NCBI GenBank assembly: GCA_017822615.1
Contig: GCA_017822615.1_4530.1
Source: a phage
Length of the DNA: 64,000 nucleotides
Reading direction: 5' to 3' (one strand)
Both the position numbers and the translations under genes were made by a program. Positions 18,796-39,141 of this stretch are shown piece after piece; the stretch's first letter is position 1; each line of letters opens with the position of its first letter. Below the pieces are notes generated by a model. The model was not told the DNA's origin. It did no database searches and saw nothing but the letters and a program-made list of their open reading frames with translations.

Positions 18796-18796
18796 T

Positions 18797-20273: not shown

Positions 20274-20286
20274 TAAGGAGCTAAAA

Positions 20287-20760: not shown

Positions 20761-20772
20761 GAGGAGATTAGT

Positions 20773-20994: not shown

Positions 20995-20997
20995 GTG

Positions 20998-21025: not shown

Positions 21026-21073
21026 ATATCACATGAAGCGGGGAATAGTTCCCCGCAAAGAGAGGAGAAAAGA

Positions 21074-22048: not shown

Positions 22049-22054
22049 TAAATG

Positions 22055-22080
22055 AGCCTCCTTCGGGAGGCTATTTTATA
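22055..22080 (+). terminator. rho-independent terminator
   Basis: AGCCTCC-ttcg-GGAGGCT then ATTTTAT. Confidence 0.6.
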
Positions 22081-22090
22081 GGAGAGACTT

Positions 22091-22441
22091 ATGAGTAATT
22101 TTGATGAAATTCAAGAACTTGTTTGGGATTTATCTGGTGATGTGGATTACGTTTTAGATTATCTTTCAAAAGTTTACCCTGGGGTAAGCGTTATGATCGT
22201 GACCAAAGATCCAATTAATTTGCCTCCTAATGTGGTAGCTTGTTGTGGGAGTGGTTCAGGGGAAGTGGAGCCTGTATCCCGTTGGGAATTAACTAAAGCT
22301 GTTTCAAAACGAAACGGTGAAGTTTTGAATATTGATATCGAGCAAATATGGACTTCTCCAGCAGCTAAATGGAATGATCCGAATGGTTGGGACTTGTTCT
22401 TCTGGGATAATGAAACTGATGATGAGGTATTTTTAAAATGA
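22091..22441 (+). CDS. hypothetical protein
   Basis: 116 aa. Confidence 0.45.
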   Translation: MSNFDEIQELVWDLSGDVDYVLDYLSKVYPGVSVMIVTKDPINLPPNVVACCGSGSGEVEPVSRWELTKAVSKRNGEVLNIDIEQIWTSPAAKWNDPNGWDLFFWDNETDDEVFLK

Positions 22442-22683
22442 AATACTTGTTGGTTGTGTTTGAAAATATTTGTTTTGCAATAGGGTTGTTTGTTGTAATT
22501 TTTGTATTGACAAGCGTAATCAACGGCAGTAAAGTGAGTTTATACCGAGATGGAGAGCAACTTTATTGCTTCTCTGGAGATTTCAAACACAGATGTATTA
22601 ATAGCCAAAACGAGGAAAGCAAATATGAAAAAACTAGCCCTGATTTTAATTGGTTGTATCTTTTTAACAGCTTGCGAGGATGA
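22438..22683 (+). CDS. possible small membrane protein (overlaps lipoprotein gene start)
   Basis: 81 aa, hydrophobic N-terminus; contains an internal promoter-like TTGACA-N17-TAAAGT at 22507-22535. Confidence 0.3.
   Translation: MKYLLVVFENICFAIGLFVVIFVLTSVINGSKVSLYRDGEQLYCFSGDFKHRCINSQNEESKYEKTSPDFNWLYLFNSLRG
22507..22535 (+). promoter_or_regulatory. sigma70-like promoter upstream of lipoprotein gene
   Basis: TTGACA N17 TAAAGT. Confidence 0.35.
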
Positions 22684-23062
22684 AACAAATCCTGCACAAT
22701 ACCAACAACCTCCTCAACAATACGCTCAACAAGGATCTGACGGAGATACAACTATTATCAACAATGGTGGCGGTTCTAGTAGTAGCGGTGTTGGTGAGTT
22801 TGCTACAGGTATGTTGTTAGGGCATATGATGAGTGGCGGTAGTAATCGTAGCAGTGGGGATTATAACGATAACAGAACGATTATTAATAAGCATTATAAT
22901 ACACCTAAACCGAAAACTAATTTTTATAGTAAGCCTAAACAAGAGATAAAAACTTATGAAAAGCCGAGACAAACTTTTAAAACAAATAGTAGCTATACAA
23001 CTCGTAAATCTTACAATAGCCCTTTAAGTAAAAAGAGTTCATCTCGTAGCAAGCGACGTTAA
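22625..23062 (+). CDS. lipoprotein (Q/S/N-rich)
   Basis: start moved to ATG 22625; MKKLALILIGCIFLTAC lipobox; low-complexity C-terminus. Confidence 0.55.
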   Translation: MKKLALILIGCIFLTACEDETNPAQYQQPPQQYAQQGSDGDTTIINNGGGSSSSGVGEFATGMLLGHMMSGGSNRSSGDYNDNRTIINKHYNTPKPKTNFYSKPKQEIKTYEKPRQTFKTNSSYTTRKSYNSPLSKKSSSRSKRR

Positions 23063-23076
23063 TAAGGAGAAAAACA

Positions 23077-23670
23077 ATGACAATTTCTATTCGTACTTCC
23101 ATCGTAGGTGTTAAAAGGTTGCCTAATGCTTTGCAAATCACACGCGCTTTGAGGGATACATTCTCTGCTGTGGACGAGCATAAGATGCTTGATAATCTTT
23201 CAAATTGGCCCTATTTCCATTATTTTAAAAATGAAGATGACGAGTTTATAGACGCTGTTTCTTATGGTTATGATTTCGGTAAGGAGGTTTCTGCTGAAGA
23301 ATTTGTAGCTATGGTGTTCCCAAACGGTTTGCCTACTCGCAGTAAACGTAAAAAAGGACCAAAAAACAAGAAACGTGCTACTAATAAAGCTACCATTTTC
23401 TTTACTGATGGCACACAATATACGATTAAAGATTTTGAAGAGGTATCTTATACAGCAGGTGGGAATCTTTCTTTCTACACCATCAAAAAACAAAACTCTA
23501 CGTTCAGCCATGTTTCTAACATGATTGAAATGTTAGTAGAAGATATTGAAAGCGTAGCTGTGTTAGGTATGCATAAAAGCTTTTTAATTACAAATATTTC
23601 AGATTTCAGTGCACGTTTATCTGGTCCTGATTTTGAAACCACGACCACGCATTTCACTTTTAAGGTGTAA
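23077..23670 (+). CDS. hypothetical protein
   Basis: 197 aa, basic patch SKRKKGPKNKKR. Confidence 0.45.
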   Translation: MTISIRTSIVGVKRLPNALQITRALRDTFSAVDEHKMLDNLSNWPYFHYFKNEDDEFIDAVSYGYDFGKEVSAEEFVAMVFPNGLPTRSKRKKGPKNKKRATNKATIFFTDGTQYTIKDFEEVSYTAGGNLSFYTIKKQNSTFSHVSNMIEMLVEDIESVAVLGMHKSFLITNISDFSARLSGPDFETTTTHFTFKV

Positions 23671-23673
23671 GTT

Positions 23674-24264
23674 ATGTATACCGAGAGAGACTTGCAACTC
23701 TTGTGGTGGGAAGTGATGCAGGAAATAAAAGAAGATTTTCCTGTTTACTACAACATGTTACGTGAAGCAGGATATAAAGCTTGTGTTAGAAACAAAGTGA
23801 ATAACTCTTTCGGTTGGTGCAACTACCGAGATAAAATTGTTGTTGTAAATTGGCACTTGCATAAGAACTCTACAAGAGATATGATCGTGGATACAATGAA
23901 GCACGAAATTGCTCATGCTATTGATGGTTGTATGGGTAAGTTTAGTAGACACGGTGCTCATTGGCAAAAACTGGCAGCAGAGTTAGGGGCTAATCCTAAA
24001 GCCACTTCCAAAGAGCCGTTGAACCACGAATATAAATATGTTCTTGTTCTGGTAGATAGGTTTGCGACAAGATGTGTTAGAGGTTATAATCGTAAACCTA
24101 ATCGCATGTACCCAGGTAAGCAACCTAATATGTGGTTGAAATCAGATAAAGAAGGGACCGAAGGAAAATTATGGTTGTATAAATGGGACGATTGGGTTAA
24201 AGTAGCTAAAGAGTACGGTGTTTCACCATATATAAGAGATGCAGAAGAGGAGAATGAAGAATGA
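23674..24264 (+). CDS. SprT-like zinc metallopeptidase
   Basis: HExxH motif in MKHEIAHAIDGC plus downstream His/Cys. Confidence 0.5.
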   Translation: MYTERDLQLLWWEVMQEIKEDFPVYYNMLREAGYKACVRNKVNNSFGWCNYRDKIVVVNWHLHKNSTRDMIVDTMKHEIAHAIDGCMGKFSRHGAHWQKLAAELGANPKATSKEPLNHEYKYVLVLVDRFATRCVRGYNRKPNRMYPGKQPNMWLKSDKEGTEGKLWLYKWDDWVKVAKEYGVSPYIRDAEEENEE

Positions 24265-25373
24265 CAAGTCCATTTTTAAAAGCAGCTACTGGCGGTCAGA
24301 AGAAGCCTGAAATGAGCGTATTTGCTGCAACAACAGATGCAAGTAAATCTGTATTCGCTCCAAGCGTGTTAGATGCCAGTCCTGTTTATGCACCAGCGGC
24401 ACCGCAAGAAGTTCCAGTTTTGCCTTCTATGACCCGACAAGAGATCGAAGAGATTGGGGCAGAGGCAGGAACAACCTTGCGTTCCTTGAATGCCGAGGTA
24501 TTAAAACATCAACGTAGTAATCAAGGCGATCAGATGAGTGAACGACTCACAGCTTTGATTAAACAGGCAAAACAACTTGATCCAAACTCTATTAAACAAA
24601 GCAAGGGTATTACTAAACTCATTAAAAAAGTTATGGGTATGAAAGAAGATCTGTTTGGGGAGTTTGATAATGTTAATAACCGTATTGAAGAGTTGGTAAA
24701 AAACCTTCAAATGGATATTCGCAAAGAAGAAGATTCCTTGGTATATCTTGAAAAGCTACATCAAGCTATTGGACAATATGCTGCAAGTTTGAACCGAGAT
24801 ATGCAGCTTCTAACAGCAACCTATGAAAAAGAAGAACAAGCTTTGGCTGCTCTTCCAGAAGATGCAGTAGAACAGCGACAAGTGATCCGAGATACTTTGG
24901 ATCTTCTGGAGATTCGTATTGCAGATTTAAAAGCATTGCGCCTACTGTGTGTCCAAATGGGACCGCGTGTACAAGGTATGCAAAAAGTTTCTGCAAGCTT
25001 AATGCGATCTGCGCGTAACATAGTAAATAATGTTATTCCTGCTTACTCTGCTAACTTCTCAATGTATATCGAGAGCTTACGTCAAATGAAAGCAGCAGAG
25101 ACGCAGAATAACGTTCTTGATGAATTTAACCTGGCAATTAAACTGGGTAGCGATCTTGCCACACAGAATCAGATCGAAGCAGCAGCACTGGCTAACCGTC
25201 AAGTGTTGGATATTGAAACTCTGCGTCACGATCAGGAAAACTTGGTTAAGATGTTGGAAGAAACTAACCGCATCAATACGGAAGCCCGTGCTGCTCGTGT
25301 TGATTATATTAATGAAGTTCAATCTTTGGAAGACGGGATGGTAGCTGCTGTGAAACGAGGGCTTGGTAAATGA
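24261..25373 (+). CDS. TelA-like (toxic anion resistance family) coiled-coil protein
   Basis: 370 aa largely helical; size, composition and ter-locus context suggest TelA; assignment by recollection only. Confidence 0.4.
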   Translation: MTSPFLKAATGGQKKPEMSVFAATTDASKSVFAPSVLDASPVYAPAAPQEVPVLPSMTRQEIEEIGAEAGTTLRSLNAEVLKHQRSNQGDQMSERLTALIKQAKQLDPNSIKQSKGITKLIKKVMGMKEDLFGEFDNVNNRIEELVKNLQMDIRKEEDSLVYLEKLHQAIGQYAASLNRDMQLLTATYEKEEQALAALPEDAVEQRQVIRDTLDLLEIRIADLKALRLLCVQMGPRVQGMQKVSASLMRSARNIVNNVIPAYSANFSMYIESLRQMKAAETQNNVLDEFNLAIKLGSDLATQNQIEAAALANRQVLDIETLRHDQENLVKMLEETNRINTEARAARVDYINEVQSLEDGMVAAVKRGLGK

Positions 25374-25570
25374 GAATCCGTATCTATATAATTGATGAGG
25401 ACATTGGTGTCCGTTATGATGACGAAAAACGATTCGCGCCGATGGGAGGCATATATCCCCCAAGTGTTCTAGCAGTTTGTCGTGATTGTTATATTTATGA
25501 AGGTTGTCGTAACTTCCGTAAATTCGAACTCCTTGCAGATATTGACTTCAATGAGGAGGAGGAGGAGTAA
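25370..25570 (+). CDS. hypothetical protein
   Basis: 66 aa, acidic C-terminus. Confidence 0.4.
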   Translation: MRIRIYIIDEDIGVRYDDEKRFAPMGGIYPPSVLAVCRDCYIYEGCRNFRKFELLADIDFNEEEEE

Positions 25571-25743
25571 TGAAAATATTACGAGTGAATATTGAAACTG
25601 CTTGGTGTGGATGCAATGAGGTTGTGGATATCGAAATTGAAGATGATATGTCTCAAGAGGATATAGAAGATCTTGCACACGAAACCTTTCAGGACTATTG
25701 TAATTACGGGTTCCATATTTTAGAGGAGGAAGAGGATGTTTAA
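25570..25743 (+). CDS. small hypothetical protein (57 aa)
   Basis: not in track; TAATG junction upstream and ATG overlap downstream. Confidence 0.35.
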   Translation: MKILRVNIETAWCGCNEVVDIEIEDDMSQEDIEDLAHETFQDYCNYGFHILEEEEDV

Positions 25744-25939
25744 CTACGATAACGACCCTAATATTATCCAGTTAACCCGACAAGAACTGATCACAATCAT
25801 TGAAGATGCTTTTATTGATGGCTGGAATACACAAGACAATGATTGGGGTGGACCCGAAGCTTTTCTGGAACATCATAAAGCTTATGGAGAATTTTGTGAA
25901 ACCACTGTAGCTCTTGATAATCTGAAGGAGGGTTTGTAA
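25736..25939 (+). CDS. hypothetical protein
   Basis: 67 aa. Confidence 0.4.
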   Translation: MFNYDNDPNIIQLTRQELITIIEDAFIDGWNTQDNDWGGPEAFLEHHKAYGEFCETTVALDNLKEGL

Positions 25940-26502
25940 TGGGTTGTTTTAGCTTTTTGTGCAAAGAATCGGGCAAAGCTGCCCTTTCTACTTCTTTCGA
26001 CGGATCACCTTGTTATCTCTTTCTTTTGAAGGACGGTGTTGTTATTGAAGAGATGTATGGCAACTATGATAGTTATGGTTGTGTTTTCTCTGGAAAGGAG
26101 GATGAAAATGGCGTTCGTGAACGGTTCGAATGGGCTATGGATTGGGGTAAGGTTTGTGATTTAATGCATTCCTCGAATCCAAGGGATGGTATCGCTATGG
26201 TGCTGGAAGAGTATTTTACAGGTGAAATCCCTACAGAACAATCTGACGGAGATCCTAACCAAGGTTGGGGTGATGGCGAAGAAGATCCAGATTGTTTTTT
26301 CAGCACAGAAAAGAATAAGTTTAAACGTGTTGACAACCCTTATCACAAAGTGCATAATACTCTCATTGAAACAGAAGATGACAAGATGGAAATTGAAGAA
26401 GATGATCCTCTTGTAACACTTCCTATAAGTGAGTTACAAAAGATCACTAAGGAAGCTTACGATTTGGGCTTCAAAATTGGTAGAGGAGGTATGCGTGTTT
26501 AG
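25939..26502 (+). CDS. acidic hypothetical protein
   Basis: 187 aa. Confidence 0.45.
   Translation: MGCFSFLCKESGKAALSTSFDGSPCYLFLLKDGVVIEEMYGNYDSYGCVFSGKEDENGVRERFEWAMDWGKVCDLMHSSNPRDGIAMVLEEYFTGEIPTEQSDGDPNQGWGDGEEDPDCFFSTEKNKFKRVDNPYHKVHNTLIETEDDKMEIEEDDPLVTLPISELQKITKEAYDLGFKIGRGGMRV
26330..26358 (+). promoter_or_regulatory. sigma70-like promoter (internal to preceding gene)
   Basis: TTGACA (26330-26335) N17 CATAAT (26353-26358). Confidence 0.4.
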
Positions 26503-26773
26503 ATTCAATATTCAAGAAGAAAAAAGTCAGGATTTACCTATTGCTTTCGAAGATCTTGACGTAGGGGCCACATTCATGTATTATGATGCCTATGAAGACG
26601 CAGGGTTGGATACCTACCGTAACTTGGTGTTCATTAAAAATTCCACAAACAGTGCGATTTGTATTAATGGATCACTAGCACAACGAGGCTATACTCATTG
26701 CATCCCACCAGATACAAATATGGTGGAAGTAGATTTAGAAGTTACCAATATTACACTTAAGAAGGAGAAATAA
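26495..26773 (+). CDS. small protein, paralog A of a duplicated family
   Basis: GTG start after GAGGAGG; shares FxIxEEK...DLDVGxTFxY...GLD...EVxLxVTxITLK with 27795..28064. Confidence 0.45.
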   Translation: MFRFNIQEEKSQDLPIAFEDLDVGATFMYYDAYEDAGLDTYRNLVFIKNSTNSAICINGSLAQRGYTHCIPPDTNMVEVDLEVTNITLKKEK

Positions 26774-26774
26774 T

Positions 26775-27569
26775 ATGTCCGAGAAAATCAGCCTGAAAAA
26801 ACGTCAAGAAAACCTTGCTTTCTCTCTGAAAAAGAATAAGAACCTGAATGAAGGTAAGATTGTTCTTCGTGTAGCATGTGCTCTAGATATTTCTGGTAGT
26901 ATGCATGGTCTATATTCTAGTGGGGTAGTGAGTGATTTTGTAGGTAAACTGCTTCCTTTTGGTATGCTGTTCGACGATAATCAACAAATTGATATGTGGG
27001 CCTTCAATACGAGTTCCCAAGAGCTTACTCCAGCAACAGCAGACGTTTACGATGACTATGTTGGTAAATGTATGCGTAATGTTCGTATCGGAGGTGGAAC
27101 AAATTACGCCCCTGTAATGGCAGATATCTACGATGAGTATTTTGGCACTGTTACCAAATATATTACCACTAAACAAGTGGTACAAGAGGAGGCTCCAAAG
27201 AAAGGCTTCTTTAATCGTCTGCTTGGTAAAACTGAAACAGTATCTGTAGAGCGTGAAAAGGTTGTAGCTGTGTCTGAACCAGGTGCTGACGTTACCCCTG
27301 GTGTTGTATTCTTCCAGACGGATGGTGAGAATGGTGATCCTAGTGCTGTTCGTCGTCTTATTGAAGAGAATAAGAATAAACCTATTTATTGGTTCATGGT
27401 TGGCGTTGGTAATGAGAAGTTTGGCTTCCTGAAAGAACTGGCAAATGCTTATGATAATGTTGGTTTTATTGGCATTAAAGATTTAGACTTGACAGATTCA
27501 GAGCTTTATGACAAACTCTTATCTGAAGAGTTCGGAGAGTGGGTTGTTAAAGTAGGTGCTAAAAAATGA
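26775..27569 (+). CDS. vWA-domain protein (TerY-like)
   Basis: MIDAS motif DISGSM with downstream GGTNYAP; N-terminus KISLKK...FSLKK resembles TerD N-terminus. Confidence 0.6.
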   Translation: MSEKISLKKRQENLAFSLKKNKNLNEGKIVLRVACALDISGSMHGLYSSGVVSDFVGKLLPFGMLFDDNQQIDMWAFNTSSQELTPATADVYDDYVGKCMRNVRIGGGTNYAPVMADIYDEYFGTVTKYITTKQVVQEEAPKKGFFNRLLGKTETVSVEREKVVAVSEPGADVTPGVVFFQTDGENGDPSAVRRLIEENKNKPIYWFMVGVGNEKFGFLKELANAYDNVGFIGIKDLDLTDSELYDKLLSEEFGEWVVKVGAKK

Positions 27570-27814
27570 TCGACGAGCTTGCCTCTCAAGTCATAGAAAA
27601 TTATTGGCGCGAGAGAGAAGCTTTCATTATGCGCAGTCTCAAAGAGTATTTCATTGGGACTGTGCGAATGGAAGATATTGTAAGTAGAGTAGAGATTCAT
27701 GTATGGCCTGATTATGAAGAATGGGTTGACAAAGAAAATGAAAATGCTATAATTCTTCGTATATACAAACCGGAGATAACATTAGGAGGAAGAAGTGTTA
27801 AACTTCGAAATTGA
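27566..27814 (+). CDS. hypothetical protein
   Basis: 82 aa, ATGA overlap. Confidence 0.4.
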   Translation: MIDELASQVIENYWREREAFIMRSLKEYFIGTVRMEDIVSRVEIHVWPDYEEWVDKENENAIILRIYKPEITLGGRSVKLRN

Positions 27815-28064
27815 TGAGCAAAAAGTAAATAAACGATGCCTTACCATTAAAGATTTGGATGTAGGAGATACTTTCGTCTATGAAAATGCATTTGACGAAA
27901 ATGGTTTAGACCTTAGTGAAATCATTGTTTATTTAAAAGTAGATGATGGGGAAAATGATTATTCTGCTGTAGAACTAAACCATCATGCACAATTAGTATC
28001 AATCCAAAACACATCTAAGCTTTTGGAAGTAGAATTGACTGTAACTGGTATTACACTTAAATAA
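27795..28064 (+). CDS. small protein, paralog B of a duplicated family
   Basis: GTG start after AGGAGG; see paralog A. Confidence 0.45.
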   Translation: MLNFEIDEQKVNKRCLTIKDLDVGDTFVYENAFDENGLDLSEIIVYLKVDDGENDYSAVELNHHAQLVSIQNTSKLLEVELTVTGITLK

Positions 28065-28079
28065 TAGAGGAGACAAAAG

Positions 28080-28682
28080 ATGACTGATAAAATTTCCCTG
28101 AAAAAAGGTTCTAGCGAAAAAATTTCCCTGAAGAAAGTTGCTCCGGCTCTGAAAGAACTGCGTCTGGAATTCTCTTGGAAATCTGATTCTAAACTGGATC
28201 TGGATGTAAGTGCACTGGTTTGTCGTCACAATGCCGCTGGCAATCCTGAAATGCTGTCTGCACGTCATCTGGTTTGCTATGCTAACAAGTTTGATCCTGA
28301 ACGTTCTACCTTCGCTGGTGACGATGTTCGTGATGGAACTGGCAGCATGGAGCAGATTGATATTACTCTGGCTAAAATCTCTCCTGATGCACAAGAGATT
28401 GCCTTTGTTCTGACCATTGAGGATGATACAGGTCTGAAACGTTTTGGTCATGCTTCTGAAGGTATGCTTAAAATCTTCGACTCCGAGCGCAATGTGGAAA
28501 TTCTGGATTTTGACTTCCTGGCTCCTGAAGTAGCTGGCAACACAATCTGCCACGTGGCTTCCCTGGTTCGTGAAGATGGAGAATGGAAGCTGAAAGCATA
28601 TGGTGTAGGTAAAGCTGGTCTGGATATTTGCGATGTGGTGATGGCCTTCGGTGGTAAAAAAGAATGGTATGAATGTCCATAA
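28080..28682 (+). CDS. terD: TerD-family protein
   Basis: 200 aa aligns end to end with canonical TerD: N-terminal ISLKKG..ISLKK, LDLDVSALV, GDDVRDGTG, DGEWKLKAYGVGKAGL. Confidence 0.85.
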   Translation: MTDKISLKKGSSEKISLKKVAPALKELRLEFSWKSDSKLDLDVSALVCRHNAAGNPEMLSARHLVCYANKFDPERSTFAGDDVRDGTGSMEQIDITLAKISPDAQEIAFVLTIEDDTGLKRFGHASEGMLKIFDSERNVEILDFDFLAPEVAGNTICHVASLVREDGEWKLKAYGVGKAGLDICDVVMAFGGKKEWYECP

Positions 28683-28781: not shown

Positions 28782-29588
28782 TTGCTGATAAAAAACTTTG
28801 TAACAGTTGCGTTACTATCCTTAACTGCTTTTACATTTACACCTGTTGTGGCGAAAGCCGAAGCTGCAAACGTAAAAACCGCTAAAGTAGTTCACAAATG
28901 TACAAAGCAATATAATGATAAAATTCTATTAGCTTGTGCAATTTACGCAGAAGGTCGCGGTCTGGGTAAAAAAGGAATGAATGCCGTTGGGAATGTGGTA
29001 ATCAACAGAAGAAATGATGCCTACTTCCCTAACACAGTCAAGGGAGTCTTGTTCCAGAAAGGGCAATTCTCATATGCGAAAACTTTTAACGTGACAGAGA
29101 AAGATAAGTGGCAGGAAGCAAAAGCAATAGCGGAGCGTTTACTTTATTTAGAGAAACATTTTCCTGAATTGCGGTCTGTTTTAGATGTTACTAAAGGTGC
29201 TCTATACTTCAAGAAACGGAATATAAGGACACACTGGGAGCGTGATATGCGTCTTGTTTATCGAGATAAAGTGCATGGTTTCTATCTACCAAAGGGAGTT
29301 AAAATGCAAGAAGATAATACTGTTGTTGTAGCAAGTTACCTGGTTGTCGGTCTTACCGAAGAGGACGTATACTACACCCGTAAACATTTGGAAGCATACG
29401 CTACTTTGTTTATGGAAGATGAAAAGGATGTAGATAAATATAGCATTGATATGATCAACGACAGTATTTATCCTTGTATGGTTCTTAAAGTAGATGCTGT
29501 GCTGTGGGAGCGTTTTGCAAGGACTCATGATGCTGTAGAATGCTCCGCAGTAATGTCTCAAAACAACATTTTAGGGGAGATTCACTGA
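28782..29588 (+). CDS. cell-wall hydrolase (SleB/CwlJ-like) with N-terminal signal/SAR segment
   Basis: TTG start after AAGGAGG; hydrophobic N-terminus then LLACAIYAEGRG...VGNVVINRR...QKGQFSY matching the SleB-type hydrolase core. Confidence 0.5.
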   Translation: MLIKNFVTVALLSLTAFTFTPVVAKAEAANVKTAKVVHKCTKQYNDKILLACAIYAEGRGLGKKGMNAVGNVVINRRNDAYFPNTVKGVLFQKGQFSYAKTFNVTEKDKWQEAKAIAERLLYLEKHFPELRSVLDVTKGALYFKKRNIRTHWERDMRLVYRDKVHGFYLPKGVKMQEDNTVVVASYLVVGLTEEDVYYTRKHLEAYATLFMEDEKDVDKYSIDMINDSIYPCMVLKVDAVLWERFARTHDAVECSAVMSQNNILGEIH

Positions 29589-30003: not shown

Positions 30004-30567
30004 ATGATTTATTATATTACTCCCTATCTGACAGGAAATATCGGCAAGGCTATCAATGAAGCTATTGCCGTTCTTCCAGATGATAGTTGGGTGTGCTTAA
30101 GAGATACCGATACAATGTTCCTCCTGCCTGATCAACCATCTATGCTTGAAGAGCTTATTATGTCAAACCCGCCTTTTGATGTAATAGGTGCAACTTGTAA
30201 CAGGTTAGGTAGTGGTTATCAGCTTTTCTCTAACCAAATTAACGATGATCCAAATATTCTAAACCATATAGAATATGCTAAGATTGCAAGAGAATATCAT
30301 AAAGTGAGTGTTGAAGAAGTTCCTTTCGGAACACCTCTGGCAGGTTTCTTTTTGCTTTTTAGAAAATCATTGTGGAATGAAATTCCTTTCGAAGAAAAAT
30401 CTATCCAATTCGACCTAATTTTCTCTCGCACTTTACATGAAAAAGGAAAAAGGTTAGGATTGATGCGGGGAATGTATCTGTTTCACATTTACAGATTAGG
30501 TCAAACAAATCCTCAACGGTCTATACATCATTTATTACACTGTCACGATCACAGTAAAACTATCTAG
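30004..30567 (+). CDS. putative glycosyltransferase
   Basis: 187 aa with DTD acidic motif; weak. Confidence 0.3.
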   Translation: MIYYITPYLTGNIGKAINEAIAVLPDDSWVCLRDTDTMFLLPDQPSMLEELIMSNPPFDVIGATCNRLGSGYQLFSNQINDDPNILNHIEYAKIAREYHKVSVEEVPFGTPLAGFFLLFRKSLWNEIPFEEKSIQFDLIFSRTLHEKGKRLGLMRGMYLFHIYRLGQTNPQRSIHHLLHCHDHSKTI

Positions 30568-30575
30568 GAGAGAAA

Positions 30576-31259
30576 ATGGAAAATATTAAAATCGGAGTGG
30601 GTGTTATCACTGTAGGTGTCCGTCCACTTAAAGACTATCTTGTAACAGATCCACATGCAGATTTTCGAGTATTCAACGATCCAGATCGTAAAGGTGTAGC
30701 TTACGCCAGGAATGAACTTATGCACCAGTTTTATGAAGAAGGTTATGATTATTGGTTTATTTTTGACGACGATTGCTACCCAATCATGGAGGGATGGGAA
30801 ACATATTTTGTAGATCAAGCTGTCTCTGGAGGATGGGATTTCTTTGGTATGCCGGAGTATTTCAAAGATAAAGTTGTTGGGAGTAAAGGAGAAGTTATTC
30901 TCTGGGAACTTGCAATGTGTCAATTTGCAATGTATTCTCGTGCCGTTGTTGAGAAGATGGGTTATTTCCGCCCTTACACTCACGGCTATGGTTTTGAAGA
31001 TGCTGAATGGGTACACCGTTTGAAAGCTGCTGGTTTGAATCAGGGCATTCAGGCAATACCTTGTCCACTTCGTATCATGGCTTATATCCACCCAGACGAT
31101 GTTTTTGGAAACAATCCTATGCCTTTTGCTAATCTGACAAAAGAAGAGAAAGAAGCTGCTATTGGCATTAACTGGGAAGAATATAAAGCGTCTTTAGAAG
31201 ATATTAAAAATGGGAAAATCCGAATTTCTTATGAGGAGGCACTGGCACATGTCAAATAA
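30576..31259 (+). CDS. glycosyltransferase, GT-A (family 2-like)
   Basis: GVAYARN and FIFDDDCYP (DxD) motifs. Confidence 0.5.
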   Translation: MENIKIGVGVITVGVRPLKDYLVTDPHADFRVFNDPDRKGVAYARNELMHQFYEEGYDYWFIFDDDCYPIMEGWETYFVDQAVSGGWDFFGMPEYFKDKVVGSKGEVILWELAMCQFAMYSRAVVEKMGYFRPYTHGYGFEDAEWVHRLKAAGLNQGIQAIPCPLRIMAYIHPDDVFGNNPMPFANLTKEEKEAAIGINWEEYKASLEDIKNGKIRISYEEALAHVK

Positions 31260-32196
31260 AAAATGGACTAAACTGAAAATTGATGCAAAACCTCACAGTG
31301 GTTGTGATTATCATCGTATTGTTATACCATTTAACAACAATAATTTTCAGCCTAAGAAAGATGTTGTCGTGTTTAACCGTATTCATTCTAAAGGGGCAGA
31401 ATATGTTCTGTCCCTGAAACGTCAAGGTGTTAAGATTGTTGTAGATTTAGATGATTTCTACCAACTTAATCCAGAACATTATTTAGCAAGTTTATATGAG
31501 TCAAACACTCATGCTATTGTAGCTATGGTTAAGCTTGCCGATGTGGTCATTGTGACTACGGAATATTTGGCATATAAGATCCGTCACTTAAATAGGAATG
31601 TTGTTGTGATCCGAAATGCACTTCCTTTTGATAGCGGACAATTCACTTTGTCAAATGATCGTTCATCCGGTACCCCTGTTGTATGGGCTGGCGGTGCTAG
31701 TCACGAACCCGATTTACGACTAGTCTCTAATACTTTCGATGATGAACTTCTTACTATTGCAGGATATGAAGCATCGCAGAGTATCACAGGGCAAGAGTGG
31801 ATTAAGATCCGTAGAAATTTACCAAATGCCAAATATAAAGCTGCTGTAAAAGATTTAGATAATTACATGAGTGTTTACGAAAGTCATGCTATTGCTATAG
31901 CTCCTTTGGTAGATAATGATTTTAATAATTGTAAAAGTAATCTCAAAATCCTTGAAGCTGGGGCAAAAGGTATTCCGATTGTTTGTTCTAAGGTATTACC
32001 TTATTTTAACCCTGTAGATGCTCGCGCTGTTGCTTATGCAGAGAATAAAGCAGAATGGCATTACGAAATTGTTAAGCTTCTTCGAAATCCGAACTATCGG
32101 GAAGATCGCGGCTTGTTCTTAGCGGAACATGTTCGAACACATTATAATCTGGCAGATGCAAACGAATTGCGACGCCAGGTTATTGAAAGTTTGTAG
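31249..32196 (+). CDS. glycosyltransferase (GT-B-like), paralog 1
   Basis: start moved to ATG 31249 after GAGGAGG; C-terminal NCKSNLKILEAGAKGIPIVCS. Confidence 0.5.
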   Translation: MSNKKWTKLKIDAKPHSGCDYHRIVIPFNNNNFQPKKDVVVFNRIHSKGAEYVLSLKRQGVKIVVDLDDFYQLNPEHYLASLYESNTHAIVAMVKLADVVIVTTEYLAYKIRHLNRNVVVIRNALPFDSGQFTLSNDRSSGTPVVWAGGASHEPDLRLVSNTFDDELLTIAGYEASQSITGQEWIKIRRNLPNAKYKAAVKDLDNYMSVYESHAIAIAPLVDNDFNNCKSNLKILEAGAKGIPIVCSKVLPYFNPVDARAVAYAENKAEWHYEIVKLLRNPNYREDRGLFLAEHVRTHYNLADANELRRQVIESL

Positions 32197-32203
32197 GTGA
32201 AGT

Positions 32204-33147
32204 ATGGGACAAATAATTCTTGACAATCGTAACGGAATCAATTATAGTGTCTGCGATTTCCATAGGGTAGTGCTGCCTTACTCAAGGCAGTTCTCTTCAC
32301 AACCTAAACACAACGTTTTCGTTTTTAACGGAGTGCCAACAAAAGGTAAAGAGGGCTTTTAGCCCTTAAAAACCTGGGCTTTAAAATGGTTATGGATTTG
32401 GATGACTCTTTAGTTATTCCAAAAGGACACATGTTAGAAGGTATTTTTGAATCAGGTATTCGTGAACATTTAAAATGGTTTTTAGAGCACAGTGATCTTG
32501 TTACAACTACGACACCTGCCTTGCAAGTTGAACTTTCACAATACAATGATAATGTGCACATAATCCCTAATGGACTTCCTTACGATGAAGGTCAATTTGT
32601 GTTGACCCGTGATCGCTACTCCAAAACTCCATTAGTCTGGGCTGGAAGTGAAACACATAAACAAGATTTGGCTATCTTGCCCGATTTTGGTAAAGATCTT
32701 ACAATATGTGGTTTTCGTAGGGATTCTGAAGTTTTAAGTAGTCGTGAATGGTCTTTAATCAGGGAAAATGTAGCACCAACTTGTGTTTATGAAGGTGTAA
32801 GACCATATGCCAACTACATGGAATCTTACGATGGTCATCAAATCAGTCTTGCACCATTGATCGATAACGTGTTTAATAATGCAAAAAGCAATCTTAAAAT
32901 TCTTGAGGCAGGTGCTAAGGGTTTACCTTTAATCTGCTCTCCTCGTGAGAATTATCATACACAAGAGTTTAAAGATTTGTTATTCTTTGCTGAAACACCT
33001 TCCGAGTGGAAAGATATTACGGAATACTTATTAAGTGCTCCCGATGTTTGCATGGAGAAAGGATTAGCATTAGCTAAGTATGTCAGGACTCATTATCACA
33101 TTGATGTGTTGAATGAGCGTCGTAGACTTTTATTTGAGGAGCTATAA
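32204..33147 (+). pseudogene. glycosyltransferase paralog 2, interrupted by an apparent -1 frameshift in a TTTT run
   Basis: 52-codon N-terminal ORF (32204-32362) aligns with paralog 1 N-terminus then hits TAG; C-terminal ORF from 32386 continues the alignment in the -1 frame; junction at GGC-TTTT-AG (32354-32362). Confidence 0.45.
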
Positions 33148-33425
33148 TGATTAACACTTTTGATTTTGAATACACCACTCGTAACGGGAAAGCCTTGGTC
33201 GTGGAGGTGGATTACTATTATGAAGAACCTAATCCACTTTCTCGTGAAAGCGATTGGGATTACCACGGAGGGCTTTTAATTGACGGTATTCGTTTTTATG
33301 AAGGATCTACAGAAGTTTTTGAAAAAGATTTAAATGTAACTGTAGCAGAAATTGCTTTCCAATTTAGAAAGCACATGGAAGAACTAGAAGCAGAATATAT
33401 GATGGAGACTAACGAACCATTTTAA
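33147..33425 (+). CDS. hypothetical protein
   Basis: 92 aa, ATGA overlap. Confidence 0.45.
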   Translation: MINTFDFEYTTRNGKALVVEVDYYYEEPNPLSRESDWDYHGGLLIDGIRFYEGSTEVFEKDLNVTVAEIAFQFRKHMEELEAEYMMETNEPF

Positions 33426-33437
33426 CAGGAGAACAAA

Positions 33438-35216
33438 GTGTCGCACATTATAACTAAATATGGATTTGATGTTGATCTTAGCAAGGAAGGGCATACAGGT
33501 TGTCCGCGCTGCATGAAAAATGGCAAGGATCGCTCTCGTAATAACCTGATGGTTTATGGATTAGATTCTAATGGAGAGCATAAAGGTGCTAAGTGCTTTG
33601 CGTGTGAATACACTATTCCTAGCGTAGAATGGTTACGAGAAAATGGTGAAGTTTTAGAAGAAGAGGAGGAGATTGTGGGTTCGGAATTTAATAAACAGAT
33701 TCATCGTAAAATTGTTCAAGAAACATCAACCAACCCACGTGGTTATCGAGGCATTAAAGAAAAAGTTTCATCTTTCTATGGTGTTCGTTATGAATACCGT
33801 CAGGAAGGGGATCAGATGGTAGTAGAAAGTTGTTTATATCCAACTACTATCGGTAAAGAATTGGTTGGTTTTAAGCGTCGTATTCATCCTAAAGATTTCA
33901 GTAAACCTATTGGTCAAGTAGGTAAAGATGTAGATCTTTTTGGACAAATTCGTTTTGCAGACCGTTCTCATACTGTGGTAATTACAGGTGGTGAACACGA
34001 TGCTCTGGCAGCTTATCAAATGCTGTCTGAAAACTTGGACAACAAATATGAACTTCCAGCAGTAGTTAGTGGCACAACTGGTGAAACCAGTATGTATAAA
34101 CAAGTTCAGGCACAATACCCTTTCTTTGAAAAATTTAAGAAGATTATTGTTTGCATGGATAATGACAAAGCAGGTAATGAGGCATTTGAAAATATTGTTA
34201 AGGTGCTGCCTCGTAACAAAGTCTACCGTATGCAGATGGATCTTAAGGATGCCAATCAGTATCTGGAAGAAGGTCGTGCAAAAGATTTCGTAAAAGCTTT
34301 TTGGAGTGCTCGTCTATACACCCCAGCAGGTGTTTATGCTTCTAATGTCTTGTATGAAGCTGCATTAGAATGCTTGGAATCCAAGATGATTACCTTGCCT
34401 CCTTTTATGCGTGTTGCTGCAAATATGCTGGGTGGTGGTTTAGTAGAGGAAGAGATTACAGTCATCCTGGCAAAGACCAGTATCGGTAAAACTTTGATGG
34501 TGAACGAGATCACCAAACATATTATTGTTGCGCACCCAGAACATACCCTAGGTATTCTGTCCTTGGAAGCAACTTATAAGAAATATTCTCGTAACCTGTT
34601 GTCCTCGTTCCTGCATATTCCTCTACACAGGAAAACACCGGAAGAGAAATTTCAAATCTTGGAAGAGAATAAAGAAAAAATCCTAGATTTTTACGAAAGA
34701 GAAGATGGATCACCACGTTTTTATGTGTGTGATGATCGTGGAGCAGATGTGGAGTCTATCAAAGAAAAAGTTTTGGAGATGATCATCTATTTTGGAGTAA
34801 CAATTCTTGTTATCGACCCTTATTCTGATTTGCTTTCTGGTATGGATGTTCAAGCCCAGGAAGAGTTAGCAACATGGTTGAAGCGCATCATGAAAGAGTA
34901 TGCTATAACTATTATCGTCATCTCACACGTTAAGAAATCGGCTAATGGTGGCAATGAACACTTAACAGAGGACGATGCAATGGGTAGTAGTTTCTTGGCT
35001 AAAGGTGCTGGTATTACCTTGGCTTTGGAACGAGATAAAGCCGCTGAAGACCCTGTAGAACGCAATACGACTCATTGCTTTATCCTAAAAAACCGTGAGT
35101 TCTCGGAAACTGGTCCGGCAGGGCAGTTTTACTATGACATTAGAACTGCAACTCTGCATGACAAAGAGCAGTATTTCAACAATCCTGCTAATTTGCCTAC
35201 GGATAGCAACTACTAA
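33438..35216 (+). CDS. bifunctional primase-helicase (Zn ribbon + TOPRIM + DnaB-like helicase)
   Basis: GTG start; CPRC...CFAC zinc ribbon, TOPRIM acidic motifs (GGEHD, CMDNDKAGNEA), Walker A AKTSIGKT, Walker B VLVIDPYSD. Confidence 0.8.
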   Translation: MSHIITKYGFDVDLSKEGHTGCPRCMKNGKDRSRNNLMVYGLDSNGEHKGAKCFACEYTIPSVEWLRENGEVLEEEEEIVGSEFNKQIHRKIVQETSTNPRGYRGIKEKVSSFYGVRYEYRQEGDQMVVESCLYPTTIGKELVGFKRRIHPKDFSKPIGQVGKDVDLFGQIRFADRSHTVVITGGEHDALAAYQMLSENLDNKYELPAVVSGTTGETSMYKQVQAQYPFFEKFKKIIVCMDNDKAGNEAFENIVKVLPRNKVYRMQMDLKDANQYLEEGRAKDFVKAFWSARLYTPAGVYASNVLYEAALECLESKMITLPPFMRVAANMLGGGLVEEEITVILAKTSIGKTLMVNEITKHIIVAHPEHTLGILSLEATYKKYSRNLLSSFLHIPLHRKTPEEKFQILEENKEKILDFYEREDGSPRFYVCDDRGADVESIKEKVLEMIIYFGVTILVIDPYSDLLSGMDVQAQEELATWLKRIMKEYAITIIVISHVKKSANGGNEHLTEDDAMGSSFLAKGAGITLALERDKAAEDPVERNTTHCFILKNREFSETGPAGQFYYDIRTATLHDKEQYFNNPANLPTDSNY

Positions 35217-35749: not shown

Positions 35750-36544
35750 TTGAGCAAGTTGAACACACTTGATCAATATTACACTAACCCCGCTTATGCG
35801 GGGTTCTTATGTGATAAGATCAAAGAAATTTTTGGAGAGGAAGCTAACTACGTAGAACCATCTGCGGGAGAAGGAGCTTTCTCTTCTTGTTTTAAAAACA
35901 TAACTTCTTTTGATATTGACCCTAAGTTTGAAGATTGTATTGAGGCAGATTTTTTAGCTCAATCTGTTGAGTCTGTTGGTAGTGTAACTGCTTTTGTCGG
36001 TAATCCTCCGTTTGGAAAAAATGCTAGTCTTGCCATTAAGTTCTTTAACCATTGTGCTGAAATGTTGGATAACGAAGGTGGTATTTGTTTTATCTTGCCT
36101 CGCACATTTCAAAAAATCTTTTTTGCACACAAACTAAATCCCCACATGCATCTTCTTTACGAAGAAGAATGTCCAAAAGGATCTTTTATTCTTCATGGAG
36201 AACCTTGGGATGTTCCTTGTGTATTCCAGATATGGATTAAACGCAACGAGAAGCGTTCTCCCGTTGTTTTAGGAGAGAATCGACTATTCGTATTAGGTAA
36301 CAGTAAAGACTACGATATAGCCGTTAGGAGAGCGGGAGCAAGTGCAGGTAAAGTGTTATCAGAAGAAGATTCTTTATCTGAAGCATCTACCTATTTTTTA
36401 AAAGCCTTGACTTCTGATCTTAAAACGCGTATCATTGAGGCTTACCCGTTACTTAAAGCTGAAGCTAGTAAAACTGCGGGAGTAAGAAGTTTAAGTTTAA
36501 AAGAACTTCAGTGGGTTCTGGAGAACATTAGAAAGGAGGAATAG
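35750..36544 (+). CDS. N6-adenine DNA methyltransferase (orphan)
   Basis: TTG start; SAM-binding EPSAGEGAF and catalytic NPPFG motif; no adjacent nuclease. Confidence 0.65.
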   Translation: MSKLNTLDQYYTNPAYAGFLCDKIKEIFGEEANYVEPSAGEGAFSSCFKNITSFDIDPKFEDCIEADFLAQSVESVGSVTAFVGNPPFGKNASLAIKFFNHCAEMLDNEGGICFILPRTFQKIFFAHKLNPHMHLLYEEECPKGSFILHGEPWDVPCVFQIWIKRNEKRSPVVLGENRLFVLGNSKDYDIAVRRAGASAGKVLSEEDSLSEASTYFLKALTSDLKTRIIEAYPLLKAEASKTAGVRSLSLKELQWVLENIRKEE

Positions 36545-39141
36545 TGAGTAAGTTTACATGGGATATTGAAGCAAACGGATTGTTGAATAATGACACTATT
36601 GATTATTTAGCTAGTCCTTATCGTCTCAAAGACACATTTCAAATGCACTGTATTGTCTTAGAGAACCATGAAACAGGAGAAATAGTAGCTTTCCACGATG
36701 GCCCTAAATACATCTTTGATGGGCGTCCTTATGAAGAGTCAGATGGTAAATACACATATGTTCTTAAAGAGTATGTGGCGCAAGATTACACGCATTTTCA
36801 ACTAAAAGATTTCCCAGACTTTATTAATCATGAAGGTTATTTTAAAGACAAGCCTGAATATCTGGTTGAAATGGCTGTGGCTCACAACGGTATCAACTAC
36901 GACTGGTTGGCTACAAAACTGTTTTATGGATTAGATTACAGTGTTAAATATAATACGTGGGGCAAAAATAAGGTAAAACTTATTGACTCCTTGATTTTGA
37001 GTAAAGTGTTAAACCCAGATCGAAAGATTGAGGGCAAATCAGGACATAGCTTGGCAGCACTTTCTCGAAAAGCAGGTGGTGATGTAAAAATAGATTTCCG
37101 TAAAGAGATTCCAGAAGAAGATCGATTTAAGACTTTTGCTGCGGATATGCTTTATTACTGTATCTATGACAACAAAGCCAATACTAGCGTATATAACTAC
37201 CTTATGGAAGAATGGGGTGATTATGATAAATGGGAAGGTCCATTTGAACTTGAACAACGTGTAGCAGACATTATCACACGCCAAGAACACCGTGGGTTTG
37301 CTTTTAACATGAAGCAAGCAGAAGAGAACCTTGCTTTTTTGGATGCAGAAATGGAGCGTCTTCGTTTACTCGTTGAGCCTATTTTGCCACCTAAACCAGC
37401 AACAAAAGGCTATCTTAAGGCTTTTATTCCACCTAAGTTGCAAATTAAAAAGAACTTAGAGCCAACTAACCATATGATCAATTTTGCTAAGAAACATGAT
37501 GGTCATTTGGAAGAGAGGGATGGCGATTGGTGGTTAGTTATGTTGGGGAAAGAGTGGAAACTGCCAGTTGCAGCAGATGAACCTCTATGTGATCCTAACA
37601 TCCCTGCAACATTGAACGATACAACCCATATTAAAAACTGGCTTGTAGGATTAGGTTGGGTACCGTCTGAATATAAAGATAAAGACTTAACTCTTAAATC
37701 TGGCACCAAGATTAAAAAGAGCGAGGAAGAACTTCAGAAAGGTATTCGAGCTTACGTTGAGCAAACTCTATCTTCTAATTTTTGTCAGGATCGTTGTGAT
37801 CATCTGGAGTGCACACCGGAAACCTTGGAAAGGAAGATTCAAGAGCGTATAGCAAAAGGTAAAGGTCGCGGTCTTAAAGTATTGACTAACCCATGTTTTA
37901 CCAAAGGTCAGGAAAAAGAAATCTGTCCTAACCTGCAAGCTTTGGGTGAGAAATTTCCTTATGCTACTCAGATTGTAGAATACTTAACGTATAAGCATCG
38001 TAGGAACTCTATTTTAGGTGGCGGTGCTGATTGGGAAGAAGATGAAGAAGATCAAGAATACGATAAAGGTTTCTTAGCCGCAGTAAGGGCGGATGGGCGT
38101 ATTCCTACACCAGCCGCTACATGTGATGCTGCAACCTCTCGTATGAAGCATAGGTCTGTAGCCAATATCCCTCGTGTCACATCTTTGTTTGGATGGGAGA
38201 TGCGTAACTTGTTTGGTGTAGAAGTTCCTAAATACTTCCAGATCGGTTATGACTTCGACTCTTTGGAAGCAAAGATTGAGTCGCATTATTGTTGGCGCTA
38301 CGAACCGGAGCCTCATGAATACTGTAACGCTCTCTTGTTAGAGAAGCCTAACGATGTTCATACCATGATGGCAAAACGTATTACAGATACTATTGGGCGT
38401 AAGTTTGAACGTAGTCCGGCGAAATCTGTTAAATACGGGATCACTTATGGTGCACAAGCAGACAAGGTTGCTAAAACAATTGGTAGCGATAAATACACAG
38501 GGCAACTGGTGTTCGATGCTTTCTGGGAAGCTGCATTCCCACTGGCGCGTCTTAAAGAACGTTTAAACGATTTCTGGGTTAAGACTGGTAAACAGTATGT
38601 TTTGGGTATTGACGGTCGTAAGGTTCCTACTCGTTCTGCTCACGCGATTCTTAACTCTCTGTTCCAAAGTGGTGGGGTTATCTGTGCTAAACGTGCAATG
38701 GTTATTTATGACGACATGATCGAAGAAGAAGGGCTAAGTGTTGACTTCTTTAAAGATGACTGGAAGAATAAAGACTTCGTGCAACAAATGATTGCATATC
38801 ACGATGAAGCCCAGCTTGAAGTTTCTCGTAACCTTGTAGAATTCAAATGGTTTTCACCTGAATCATTAGGTTGGAAGAAAGTAGACGATCCTGAAGAACA
38901 AAAGAAAATTGATAAAGAATGCCTTGCTAAAGTTGAAGAATGGAAGCATAATAAGGAAAAAGAGACAGGGCAAATTTGGGCTAACATTCATGAATCTCCC
39001 AAAGGTGGATGGTTTACAGCCTATAGTCGGGCAGGTGAACTTGCTGCTTTAGCTGTTACTAAGGCTGGAGAATTTTACAATCTTAATGTTCAGCTTACTG
39101 CCGGATATGATGTGGGTAACTCCTGGGCGTCCTGTCACTAG
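36544..39141 (+). CDS. DNA polymerase, family A, with 3'-5' exonuclease domain
   Basis: GTG start; Exo I WDIEANGL; polymerase motif B KSVKYGITYGA and motif C YHDEAQLEV. Confidence 0.85.
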   Translation: MSKFTWDIEANGLLNNDTIDYLASPYRLKDTFQMHCIVLENHETGEIVAFHDGPKYIFDGRPYEESDGKYTYVLKEYVAQDYTHFQLKDFPDFINHEGYFKDKPEYLVEMAVAHNGINYDWLATKLFYGLDYSVKYNTWGKNKVKLIDSLILSKVLNPDRKIEGKSGHSLAALSRKAGGDVKIDFRKEIPEEDRFKTFAADMLYYCIYDNKANTSVYNYLMEEWGDYDKWEGPFELEQRVADIITRQEHRGFAFNMKQAEENLAFLDAEMERLRLLVEPILPPKPATKGYLKAFIPPKLQIKKNLEPTNHMINFAKKHDGHLEERDGDWWLVMLGKEWKLPVAADEPLCDPNIPATLNDTTHIKNWLVGLGWVPSEYKDKDLTLKSGTKIKKSEEELQKGIRAYVEQTLSSNFCQDRCDHLECTPETLERKIQERIAKGKGRGLKVLTNPCFTKGQEKEICPNLQALGEKFPYATQIVEYLTYKHRRNSILGGGADWEEDEEDQEYDKGFLAAVRADGRIPTPAATCDAATSRMKHRSVANIPRVTSLFGWEMRNLFGVEVPKYFQIGYDFDSLEAKIESHYCWRYEPEPHEYCNALLLEKPNDVHTMMAKRITDTIGRKFERSPAKSVKYGITYGAQADKVAKTIGSDKYTGQLVFDAFWEAAFPLARLKERLNDFWVKTGKQYVLGIDGRKVPTRSAHAILNSLFQSGGVICAKRAMVIYDDMIEEEGLSVDFFKDDWKNKDFVQQMIAYHDEAQLEVSRNLVEFKWFSPESLGWKKVDDPEEQKKIDKECLAKVEEWKHNKEKETGQIWANIHESPKGGWFTAYSRAGELAALAVTKAGEFYNLNVQLTAGYDVGNSWASCH

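Follow-up and report, generated by a model that had tools for sequence, protein, structure and literature searches.

What do the glycosyltransferases (GTs) of phapecoctaviruses glycosylate? This question is raised by four adjacent, closely spaced and co-oriented genes at positions 30004-33147 of a stretch of phage DNA of 64,000 nucleotides (NCBI GenBank assembly GCA_017822615.1, contig GCA_017822615.1_4530.1; "the window" in what follows). The initial annotation of this locus described one possible GT, one GT-A enzyme with a DxD motif and two tandem GT-B paralogs next to replication genes, and suggested glycosylation of phage DNA bases or, alternatively, modification of host surface glycans or virion proteins. 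Between 29500 and 34000 the window has an identity of 99.9% to Escherichia phage AV125 and of 99.5% to ESCO5, and it matches 71 phage records, which belong in nearly every case to Phapecoctavirus (Stephanstirmvirinae). By sequence similarity it is assigned to this genus, i.e. to a phAPEC8-like coliphage, and the 99.5% identical ESCO5 served as whole-genome proxy for genes that lie beyond the window. For all four genes the class is already given in databases: RefSeq calls them "glycosyltransferase" (in ESCO5, ukendt, nieznany, ESCO13 and others), and in the BASEL collection the GT-B homologs are named "putative disaccharide synthase". The idea of DNA glycosylation is in print as well, since two papers noted the unexplained rhamnose pathway and GT genes of these phages and guessed at this function. 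New here is gene-context evidence that points to glycosylation of the virion. We tentatively prefer a rhamnose-using pathway that glycosylates virion proteins, to which we assign slightly less than an even chance.

The evidence comes predominantly from phages outside the subfamily. The first GT-B gene of the cluster (GT-B1) has hundreds of relatives, and the named bacterial matches among them lie mostly in prophages. A scan of IMG/VR returned at least 558 relatives, and the best 79 loci were analysed with hidden Markov models (HMMs) for the three GT families (termed P1, GT-A and GT-B here, P1 being the product of the first gene) as well as for terminase, portal, capsid, Rml, ThyA/ThyX, primase and PolA. 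Homologs of GT-A and GT-B with 38-55% identity are always adjacent in unrelated phages, often with P1 alongside. Lineages were defined as GT-B clusters at 70% identity and were counted, with exclusion of the Stephanstirmvirinae, if they carried both GT-A and GT-B. In at least 12 of the 18 lineages head genes are found at a distance of up to 2.5 kb from the module and on the same strand. The module stands just upstream of the gene for the large terminase (TerL) in five lineages (L006/L010, L007, L012, L013/L042-44 and L031 in our numbering of loci), between the major capsid gene, which it follows directly, and head-completion genes in six (L032, L038, L039/L052, L045, L050 and L055), and in L056 a large terminase gene is located about 1.6 kb upstream of it. 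The order of genes in L050, confirmed by Pfam, reads TerL, portal, S78 protease, Phage_capsid (HK97-type), GT-A, GT-B, P1 and Phage_HCP, and in L032, with a capsid of the Gp13-like family, the open reading frame (ORF) of P1 overlaps the end of the capsid gene. Prophages of Pseudomonas silvicola and Enterobacter huaxiensis have a GT-A homolog (38% identical) and GT-B between lysis genes and terminase, the latter locus comprising also a P1 homolog and an epimerase/dehydratase. From this gene order the three GT families can be considered as a portable module with the head morphogenesis operon as its usual genomic home.

A further hint at a protein acceptor comes, by analogy, from bacterial chromosomes. 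Burkholderia dolosa (L008, 3025-8440) and Trinickia symbiotica (L009, 4742-11026) share a conserved triplet of genes for an invasin/intimin-like inverse autotransporter, a protein of 555-571 amino acids without Pfam family and a GT-B homolog. These GT-B proteins are the closest homologs encoded on bacterial chromosomes outside prophages (41-45% identity to GT-B1), and the triplet may be an adhesin glycosylation system. The C-termini of capsid proteins encoded beside the module were inspected too. They are rich in threonine in L050 (9040, …TAAT), L039 (8886, …APTT) and L032 (8799, …APTT), the ESCO5 capsid (L096, 21582) ends in …LTTA, and the capsid of L006 has no such tail. As an acceptor motif these tails are inconsistent across loci and too weak, and they are not used as evidence.

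Which enzymes does the module encode? P1 is invariant in its D34-x-D36-T37 motif and has on its own no sequence match in Pfam, NCBIfam or PDB. An exhaustive profile search extends its family to 985 representative clusters, and in its distant members Pfam recognises Glycos_transf_2 or Glyco_tranf_2_5 within the P1-homologous domain itself, which frequently forms a fusion with a TOD1/MUCI70 GT domain. Because of these matches and the invariant motif P1 is classified, at the level of sequence, as a small GT2-like enzyme of GT-A type, which supports as a GT the gene described initially as a possible one. A relationship between P1 and the second enzyme, GT-A, was not detected by hhalign. In the latter the motif R45...D64D65D66...E141D142 is found, of which R45, DDD and ED are invariant; weak sub-threshold Pfam matches to TAGT, GT2 and GT7C cover about 40 residues around the DDD motif. 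Its AlphaFold model (mean predicted local distance difference test, pLDDT, 87) has the GT-A fold, which together with the invariant aspartates at residues 64-66 agrees with the DxD enzyme of the initial annotation. The top PDB match in Foldseek and nearest solved structure is A197 (E 3.5e-6), a GT of the archaeal virus STIV, followed by generic GT-A enzymes, and the neighbours in BFVD are GT2-like proteins of phages and giant viruses including megavirus and pithovirus GTs. In three Justusliebigvirus-like IMG/VR contigs (L021-L023; GT-B 73% identical) the HMM scan recognised P1, GT-B and GT-B, and no GT-A; GT-A may have been lost or replaced in some relatives.

For GT-B1 the longest ORF begins at 31210 and relatives use the methionine at 31249. 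The Pfam matches of the protein (Glyco_trans_1_4 and Glyco_trans_1_2) are slightly below threshold, and its model (pLDDT 95) is a GT-B with two Rossmann domains. Foldseek aligned it at E values of about 1e-9 with sucrose-phosphate synthase, BshA, GlgM, SdgB, MshA, GtfC/Gtf3, PglA and TarM, with TM scores of 0.6-0.66 to GT4-type folds at a sequence identity of 12-16%, and the modelled fold is that of a GT4-like GT-B. The N-terminal domain has an invariant set of residues, namely C14, H17, R18, D61, D63, D64, H72, N118, D123, H147 and D150. Its paralog GT-B2 passes the Pfam threshold for Glyco_trans_1_2 (25.9 bits, cutoff 25). In profile searches of all three GT families against all PDB chains no meaningful matches were obtained, and NCBIfam yielded nothing for them.

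The description of the locus as a cluster of four GT genes with two tandem GT-B paralogs holds for the gene arrangement and the paralogy; GT-B2, however, is not one intact gene in the window. It is broken by the contraction of a run of five T to four T at 32353-32356, while in ESCO5, AV125 and ESCO25 five T are present and GT-B2 is intact with 314 amino acids. Each of the 20 best phage matches listed exceeds the section of the query aligned with it by 1-2 bases. A second contraction is seen at 29293 (within 28782-29588), where four G of ESCO5 are reduced to three; it merges a SleB-like hydrolase (PF07486, with signal peptide) and the next small ORF to an ORF of 268 amino acids, and relatives have a SleB-like hydrolase of 169-173 amino acids and a separate ORF. 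Since all compared relatives have five T and a second frame-breaking contraction occurs at 29293, the split of GT-B2 is probably a homopolymer sequencing error, and a programmed frameshift or a real pseudogene is less likely. The reverse case is ESCO25 (L016), where an extra G at the equivalent of window position 31959 truncates GT-B1 (annotated with 247 amino acids) and leaves GT-B2 intact; this may reflect a further sequencing error or indicate that cultured phages can do without one of the two GT-B paralogs.

Table 1. Genes of the glycosyltransferase cluster and its downstream neighbours in the window (aa, amino acids).
Feature	Coordinates	Strand	Description	PHROG match
P1	30004..30567	+	187 aa; soluble GT2-like (GT-A type) glycosyltransferase, by sequence	phrog_14179, E 1e-112
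GT-A	30576..31259	+	227 aa; soluble, predicted GT-A fold; isoelectric point 4.9	phrog_2456, E 3e-79
GT-B1	31249..32196	+	315 aa; predicted GT4-like GT-B	phrog_7162, E 7e-149
GT-B2	32204..33147	+	paralog of GT-B1, 40% identity; split here into 32204-32362 (52 aa) and 32386-33147 (253 aa)	
92-aa ORF	33147..33425	+	conserved, function unknown; between GT-B2 and primase-helicase	phrog_4240, E 6e-33
Primase-helicase	33438-35216		followed by a 143-aa ORF	
Methyltransferase	35750-36544		NPPF motif; weak Eco57I-like match	
PolA	36544-39141		865 aa in the window	

From where could these enzymes obtain their sugar? The genes RmlA-D of ESCO5, confirmed by Pfam, are located outside the window and about 75 kb from the GT cluster. 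A complete dTDP-rhamnose pathway in phapecoctaviruses and phi92-like phages was described by Olsen et al. (PMC7552041), who speculated about rhamnosylation of hydroxymethylated nucleotides. In tblastn searches of cultured phages RmlC was found in 169 records and GT-B in 147; their distributions are closely alike and span Phapecoctavirus, Justusliebigvirus and the Klebsiella relatives of both genera. Moreover, the modules of L007 and L029 include an epimerase/dehydratase gene of their own. At the level of sequence this co-distribution supports dTDP-rhamnose as donor sugar and does not prove it.

If rhamnose is the sugar, is DNA its acceptor? According to the main suggestion of the initial annotation, proposed also in PMC7552041, the GTs would put rhamnose or other sugars on a modified base and so allow the phage to evade nucleases. 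This agrees with the position of the cluster beside primase-helicase, DNA methyltransferase and PolA genes, with the combination of a dedicated nucleotide-sugar pathway and several GTs known from the arabinosylation clusters of RB69 and DLP3 (PMC13326640), and with DNA being an acceptor that all hosts share. TET-associated and JGT-type DNA GTs have been described with the same R...DDD...ED pattern as GT-A, and GT-A shows weak local matches both to TAGT in Pfam (E 1.3e-3) and to the PHROG of the T-even beta-glucosyl-HMC-alpha-glucosyltransferase (phrog_842, E 5e-6). However, the TAGT match (PF20691) amounts to 19.2 bits at a cutoff of 27.5 and is restricted to residues 33-68, i.e. about 36 residues of the generic DxD region. 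The T4 DNA glucosyltransferase families gave no Pfam match, and neither the alpha- nor the beta-glucosyltransferase of T4 (AGT and BGT) is among the 50 Foldseek PDB matches listed for GT-B1. Also the acidic to neutral character of the GT proteins (net charge of GT-A -13 and of GT-B2 -8.5) speaks against DNA.

Glycosylation of phage DNA needs a hydroxylated base, provided either by a ThyA-family enzyme or by a C5-methyltransferase together with a TET/JBP dioxygenase (PMC13326640; bioRxiv 10.1101/2023.12.21.572611). Neither a ThyA-type hydroxymethylase nor a 5hoC synthase was found: the only thymidylate-synthase-like gene of ESCO5 encodes ThyX (PF02511), and for this reason the annotated "thymidylate synthase" was not taken for a hydroxymethylase, although it may conceivably have acquired a new function. 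TET/JBP or 2-oxoglutarate dioxygenases, hydroxymethylases and C5-methyltransferases are absent from the full RefSeq annotation of ESCO5, in which the hydroxymethylase or unusual-base genes envisaged by the initial annotation had been sought, and from Pfam scans of about 40 proteins of the window and ESCO5, small hypothetical proteins not being exhaustively surveyed. The HMM scan of the 79 IMG/VR loci recovered neither ThyA nor ThyX homologs, and in several loci outside the Stephanstirmvirinae the Pfam labels of neighbours up to about 10 kb from the module contain no acceptor-generating enzyme. The methyltransferase next to the cluster was rejected as a partner in a TET pathway, because its NPPF motif is that of an amino-methyltransferase and not of a C5-methyltransferase and because two relatives, L004 and L005, have kept the GTs without it.

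Experimental data on restriction point in the same direction. The phi92-like BASEL phages (of the sister genus Justusliebigvirus) possess a homologous GT cluster (72.5% GT-B identity) and RmlC, and the group including them was reported as "exceptionally susceptible" to restriction-modification (RM) systems by Maffei et al. (PMC8594841), who point out that the phages are sensitive even though they carry a putative dTDP glycosylation machinery. Finally, a position next to replication genes is peculiar to this subfamily, in whose genomes the cluster precedes primase-helicase and PolA, whereas elsewhere the module accompanies head genes. Because the head operon is its usual home, the position beside replication genes is probably an accident of genome layout. 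Bulk protective glycosylation of DNA is unlikely, and we regard DNA bases in general as a quite improbable acceptor and the least supported one. A rhamnose-containing glycan might be attached to DNA via an acceptor formed without any precursor enzyme known so far, such as a base derived from the divergent ThyX of 332 amino acids or sparse, sequence-specific sites only. As common restriction sites would still be cleavable and only few recognition sites are covered by the restriction data, sparse modification could escape notice, but we give this variant only a very slight chance. Literature searches brought up no direct data on DNA modification, glycosylated DNA or mass spectrometry of nucleosides in the Stephanstirmvirinae.

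Are the enzymes then directed to the envelope of the host? Transmembrane segments were not found in the GTs: in the four proteins scanned (P1, GT-A, GT-B1 and the 92-aa ORF) the maximum of the Kyte-Doolittle plot with a 19-residue window does not exceed 1.65. The cluster contains no gene for export, flippase or any membrane protein, as had been stated initially for polysaccharide export genes. From the cytoplasmic side of the membrane, soluble GTs could modify lipid-linked intermediates of the lipopolysaccharide (LPS) core, O-antigen, enterobacterial common antigen or NGR, or capsule. Altered receptor glycans would lead to superinfection exclusion or would spare the progeny adsorption to debris, and in temperate carriers to lysogenic conversion. 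Such a role is in line with GT4-like GT-B and GT2-like GT-A proteins being the usual enzymes in the synthesis of LPS, O-antigen and capsule, with rhamnose as a common O-antigen sugar, with the recognition of surface glycans by Stephanstirmvirinae (PMC8594841, PMC11990801) and with the positions of the module in temperate phages, between lysis and terminase genes, which are also used by morons (add-on accessory genes). Yet neither a flippase nor a polymerase, GtrA/B/C-like or other membrane protein travels with the module. The GTs remain 40-55% identical among phages that infect Escherichia, Klebsiella, Serratia, Pseudomonas and Enterobacter although the surface glycans of these hosts differ, and a strain-specific glycan as acceptor does not agree well with this conservation. 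The overlap of the first module gene with the stop of the capsid gene in L032 suggests co-translation with head genes instead of an autonomous moron, and according to the authors of PMC11990801 complete modification of the surface during the lytic cycle is likely to be futile. The alternative of host surface glycans keeps only a minor share of our confidence and is considered unlikely.

A soluble acceptor other than phage proteins has to be discussed with respect to the genes upstream of the cluster. Together with the SleB-like hydrolase mentioned above, a Ter-type block (18190-28682) precedes the GT genes. It comprises a HAD-like hydrolase, ComF-like PRTase_3, a Macro domain protein, TerC, SprT-like, TelA, vWA-TerF-like and TerD proteins and is present in all Stephanstirmvirinae-like relatives examined. 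The GTs could modify a small molecule or a host macromolecule for host takeover or counter-defence. Candidates would be tRNA, host proteins, nucleotide signals or a nucleoside-like product of the kind postulated for Ter-type clusters. The direct linkage of block and cluster in all these relatives favours this, as does the presence of small-molecule GTs among GT4 relatives (BshA, MshA, tetrahydrobiopterin GT and SenB); a conserved soluble acceptor would also account for the conservation of the GTs across hosts. Nevertheless, no locus outside the Stephanstirmvirinae has a Ter-type block beside the module, so the linkage probably represents only backbone synteny of these genomes. The portable module carries no biosynthetic genes for an aglycone, and its placement among head genes is left unexplained. 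We hold a small molecule or host macromolecule for a rather improbable acceptor. Rhamnosylation of elongation factor P in the manner of EarP was rejected, as EarP is missing among the 50 fold matches listed for GT-B1.

Thus, we return to virion proteins, the alternative of the initial annotation that gene context supports best. This explanation builds on the identities and folds of the enzymes, on their modularity, on the linkage with head operons in unrelated phages, on the co-occurrence of GT and rml genes in the Stephanstirmvirinae and on the failure to find a recognisable enzyme that would generate an acceptor in DNA. The phage would use a module of three enzyme families: P1 as the GT2-like GT-A enzyme, another GT-A, and a GT4-like GT-B of which this lineage has two copies. 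The four proteins are presumably soluble and cytoplasmic. Acting sequentially, they would assemble a short oligosaccharide with at least one sugar from dTDP-L-rhamnose made by the phage-encoded RmlABCD. One or more structural proteins of the phage, most likely of the head, would be the acceptor, and the resulting virions would be glycosylated as are those of actinobacteriophages and giant viruses. The donor, the order of action, the protein acceptor and the benefit (shielding or altered adhesion) are what we infer for this pathway. The occurrence of protein O-glycosyltransferases (SdgB, GtfC/Gtf3) among GT4-like folds and the resemblance to the archaeal virus protein A197 would fit, but are not specific.

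Several observations weigh against virion proteins. In the window the cluster is not located beside head genes but in an early/middle block with replication genes. Among the 18 lineages there are six in which no head gene was recognised near the module, and L051 has helicase and primase-like neighbours instead. The capsid families encoded beside the module are of different types (HK97-type, Gp13-like, E217-like), so that no single protein acceptor is obvious. Late-operon positions are typical also of morons that alter the host surface, and similarity of folds does not separate types of acceptors. None of the literature searches brought up a report of a glycoprotein in a Stephanstirmvirinae virion.

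Virion glycosylation has a precedent in mycobacteriophages such as Che8, for which it is reported to be carried out by phage-encoded GTs (Freeman et al. 2023, cited in PMC12691614 and PMC12894461). Actinobacteriophages resemble the present case in the use of several soluble cytoplasmic GTs without export machinery and in GT genes that need not adjoin structural genes, and phages of Streptomyces and Arthrobacter encode distant GT-B homologs (24-26% identity), the gene of Streptomyces phage Zuko being placed at 2.4-3.2 kb, counted from the beginning of its genome record. The present system differs in its Gram-negative host, in its own dTDP-rhamnose pathway, in that a glycoprotein is only predicted and in that P1 and GT-A have neither an above-threshold Pfam match nor a solved relative detectable by sequence. 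Giant viruses decorate their particles, e.g., the fibrils of Mimivirus and the capsids of chloroviruses, by means of their own nucleotide-sugar synthesis, including that of rhamnose, and several GTs. Virus-encoded sugar synthesis together with GTs is common to both systems, and the megavirus and pithovirus proteins are BFVD neighbours of GT-A. In contrast, giant viruses belong to another realm with other hosts, they use UDP-rhamnose instead of dTDP-rhamnose and the homology is restricted to the level of folds.

With the T-even glucosyltransferases and TAGT enzymes the module shares the proximity of phage GTs to genes of DNA metabolism and the generic R...DDD...ED pattern of GT-A. It deviates from them by its sub-threshold matches, by restriction-sensitive relatives and by the absence of a hydroxymethylase, TET or C5-methyltransferase partner from what was found, and for the GT4-like GT-B1 neither T4 BGT nor AGT appears among the 50 fold matches listed. 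The retaining GT-B enzymes of CAZy GT4 type (BshA, MshA, SdgB, PglA, TarM and WsaF) have in common with GT-B1 the fold and the Glyco_trans_1_2/1_4 signatures, from which GT-B1 stands apart by its low identity and its own invariant N-terminal residues. The GtrABC systems of prophages are phage-encoded as well and alter a glycan relevant for adsorption (PMC11990801); they consist of membrane proteins acting in the periplasm (flippase, bactoprenol GT and serotype-specific GT), in contrast with the soluble enzymes without flippase described here.

The neighbourhood of primase-helicase, methyltransferase and polymerase genes is as described initially (Table 1). The order P1, GT-A, one or two GT-B, small ORF, primase-helicase and PolA is kept in three relatives (L004, L005 and L014) with proteins about 41-62% identical to those of the window, some of them having one GT-B rather than two and some lacking the methyltransferase. 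In the same three loci an 89-aa ORF holds the position of the 92-aa ORF, which is absent from the module in phages outside the Stephanstirmvirinae and may or may not be part of it. A scan for promoters and terminators between 28500 and 36000 gave results not above the shuffled expectation and is uninformative on timing. PolA of ESCO5 has 1110 amino acids because of an in-frame insert of about 735 bp (L001, 28795-29526), absent at window position ~38291, with a weak match to Intein_splicing (E 0.0097, below the cutoff). An HNH endonuclease gene disrupts PolA in L004 instead, and the PolA of L014 is 1104 amino acids long.

Some names in databases deserve attention. HOR27_gp256 of ESCO5 (L096, 18544-19023), encoded between portal and scaffold genes, is a "DNA methyltransferase" in RefSeq; this name is probably wrong, as the protein matches Pfam Peptidase_S78_2 (XkdF-like prohead protease). 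On the minus strand of the window a NADAR-domain protein is encoded at 378-920, the ESCO5 ortholog of which is listed in RefSeq as "GTP cyclohydrolase II", and a protein of 486 amino acids with five CapR-homology repeats, an "endonuclease" in RefSeq, at 1469-2929. Near-identical genomes are filed as "Campylobacter phage", "Acinetobacter phage", "Pseudomonas phage" and "Klebsiella phage", for instance Campylobacter phage B15 (99.4%) and Acinetobacter phage vB_AbaM_ABPW7 (GT-B 98.7% identical), and such coliphage-like records under other host names are probably mislabelled or contaminants.

What would the answer mean for these phages? The Stephanstirmvirinae, with phAPEC8- and phi92-like members, are coliphages of broad host range that are widely considered for therapy. 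If their virions are not glycosylated, the cluster consists of ordinary accessory GT genes that are already annotated. If they are, this would be, as far as we know, the first case of virion glycosylation to be described for phages with Gram-negative hosts. This would bear on the recognition by antibodies, on the persistence of therapeutic phages in the body and on adhesion to mucus, and the portable three-enzyme module in the head-gene operons of many uncultured phages offers a concrete test set.

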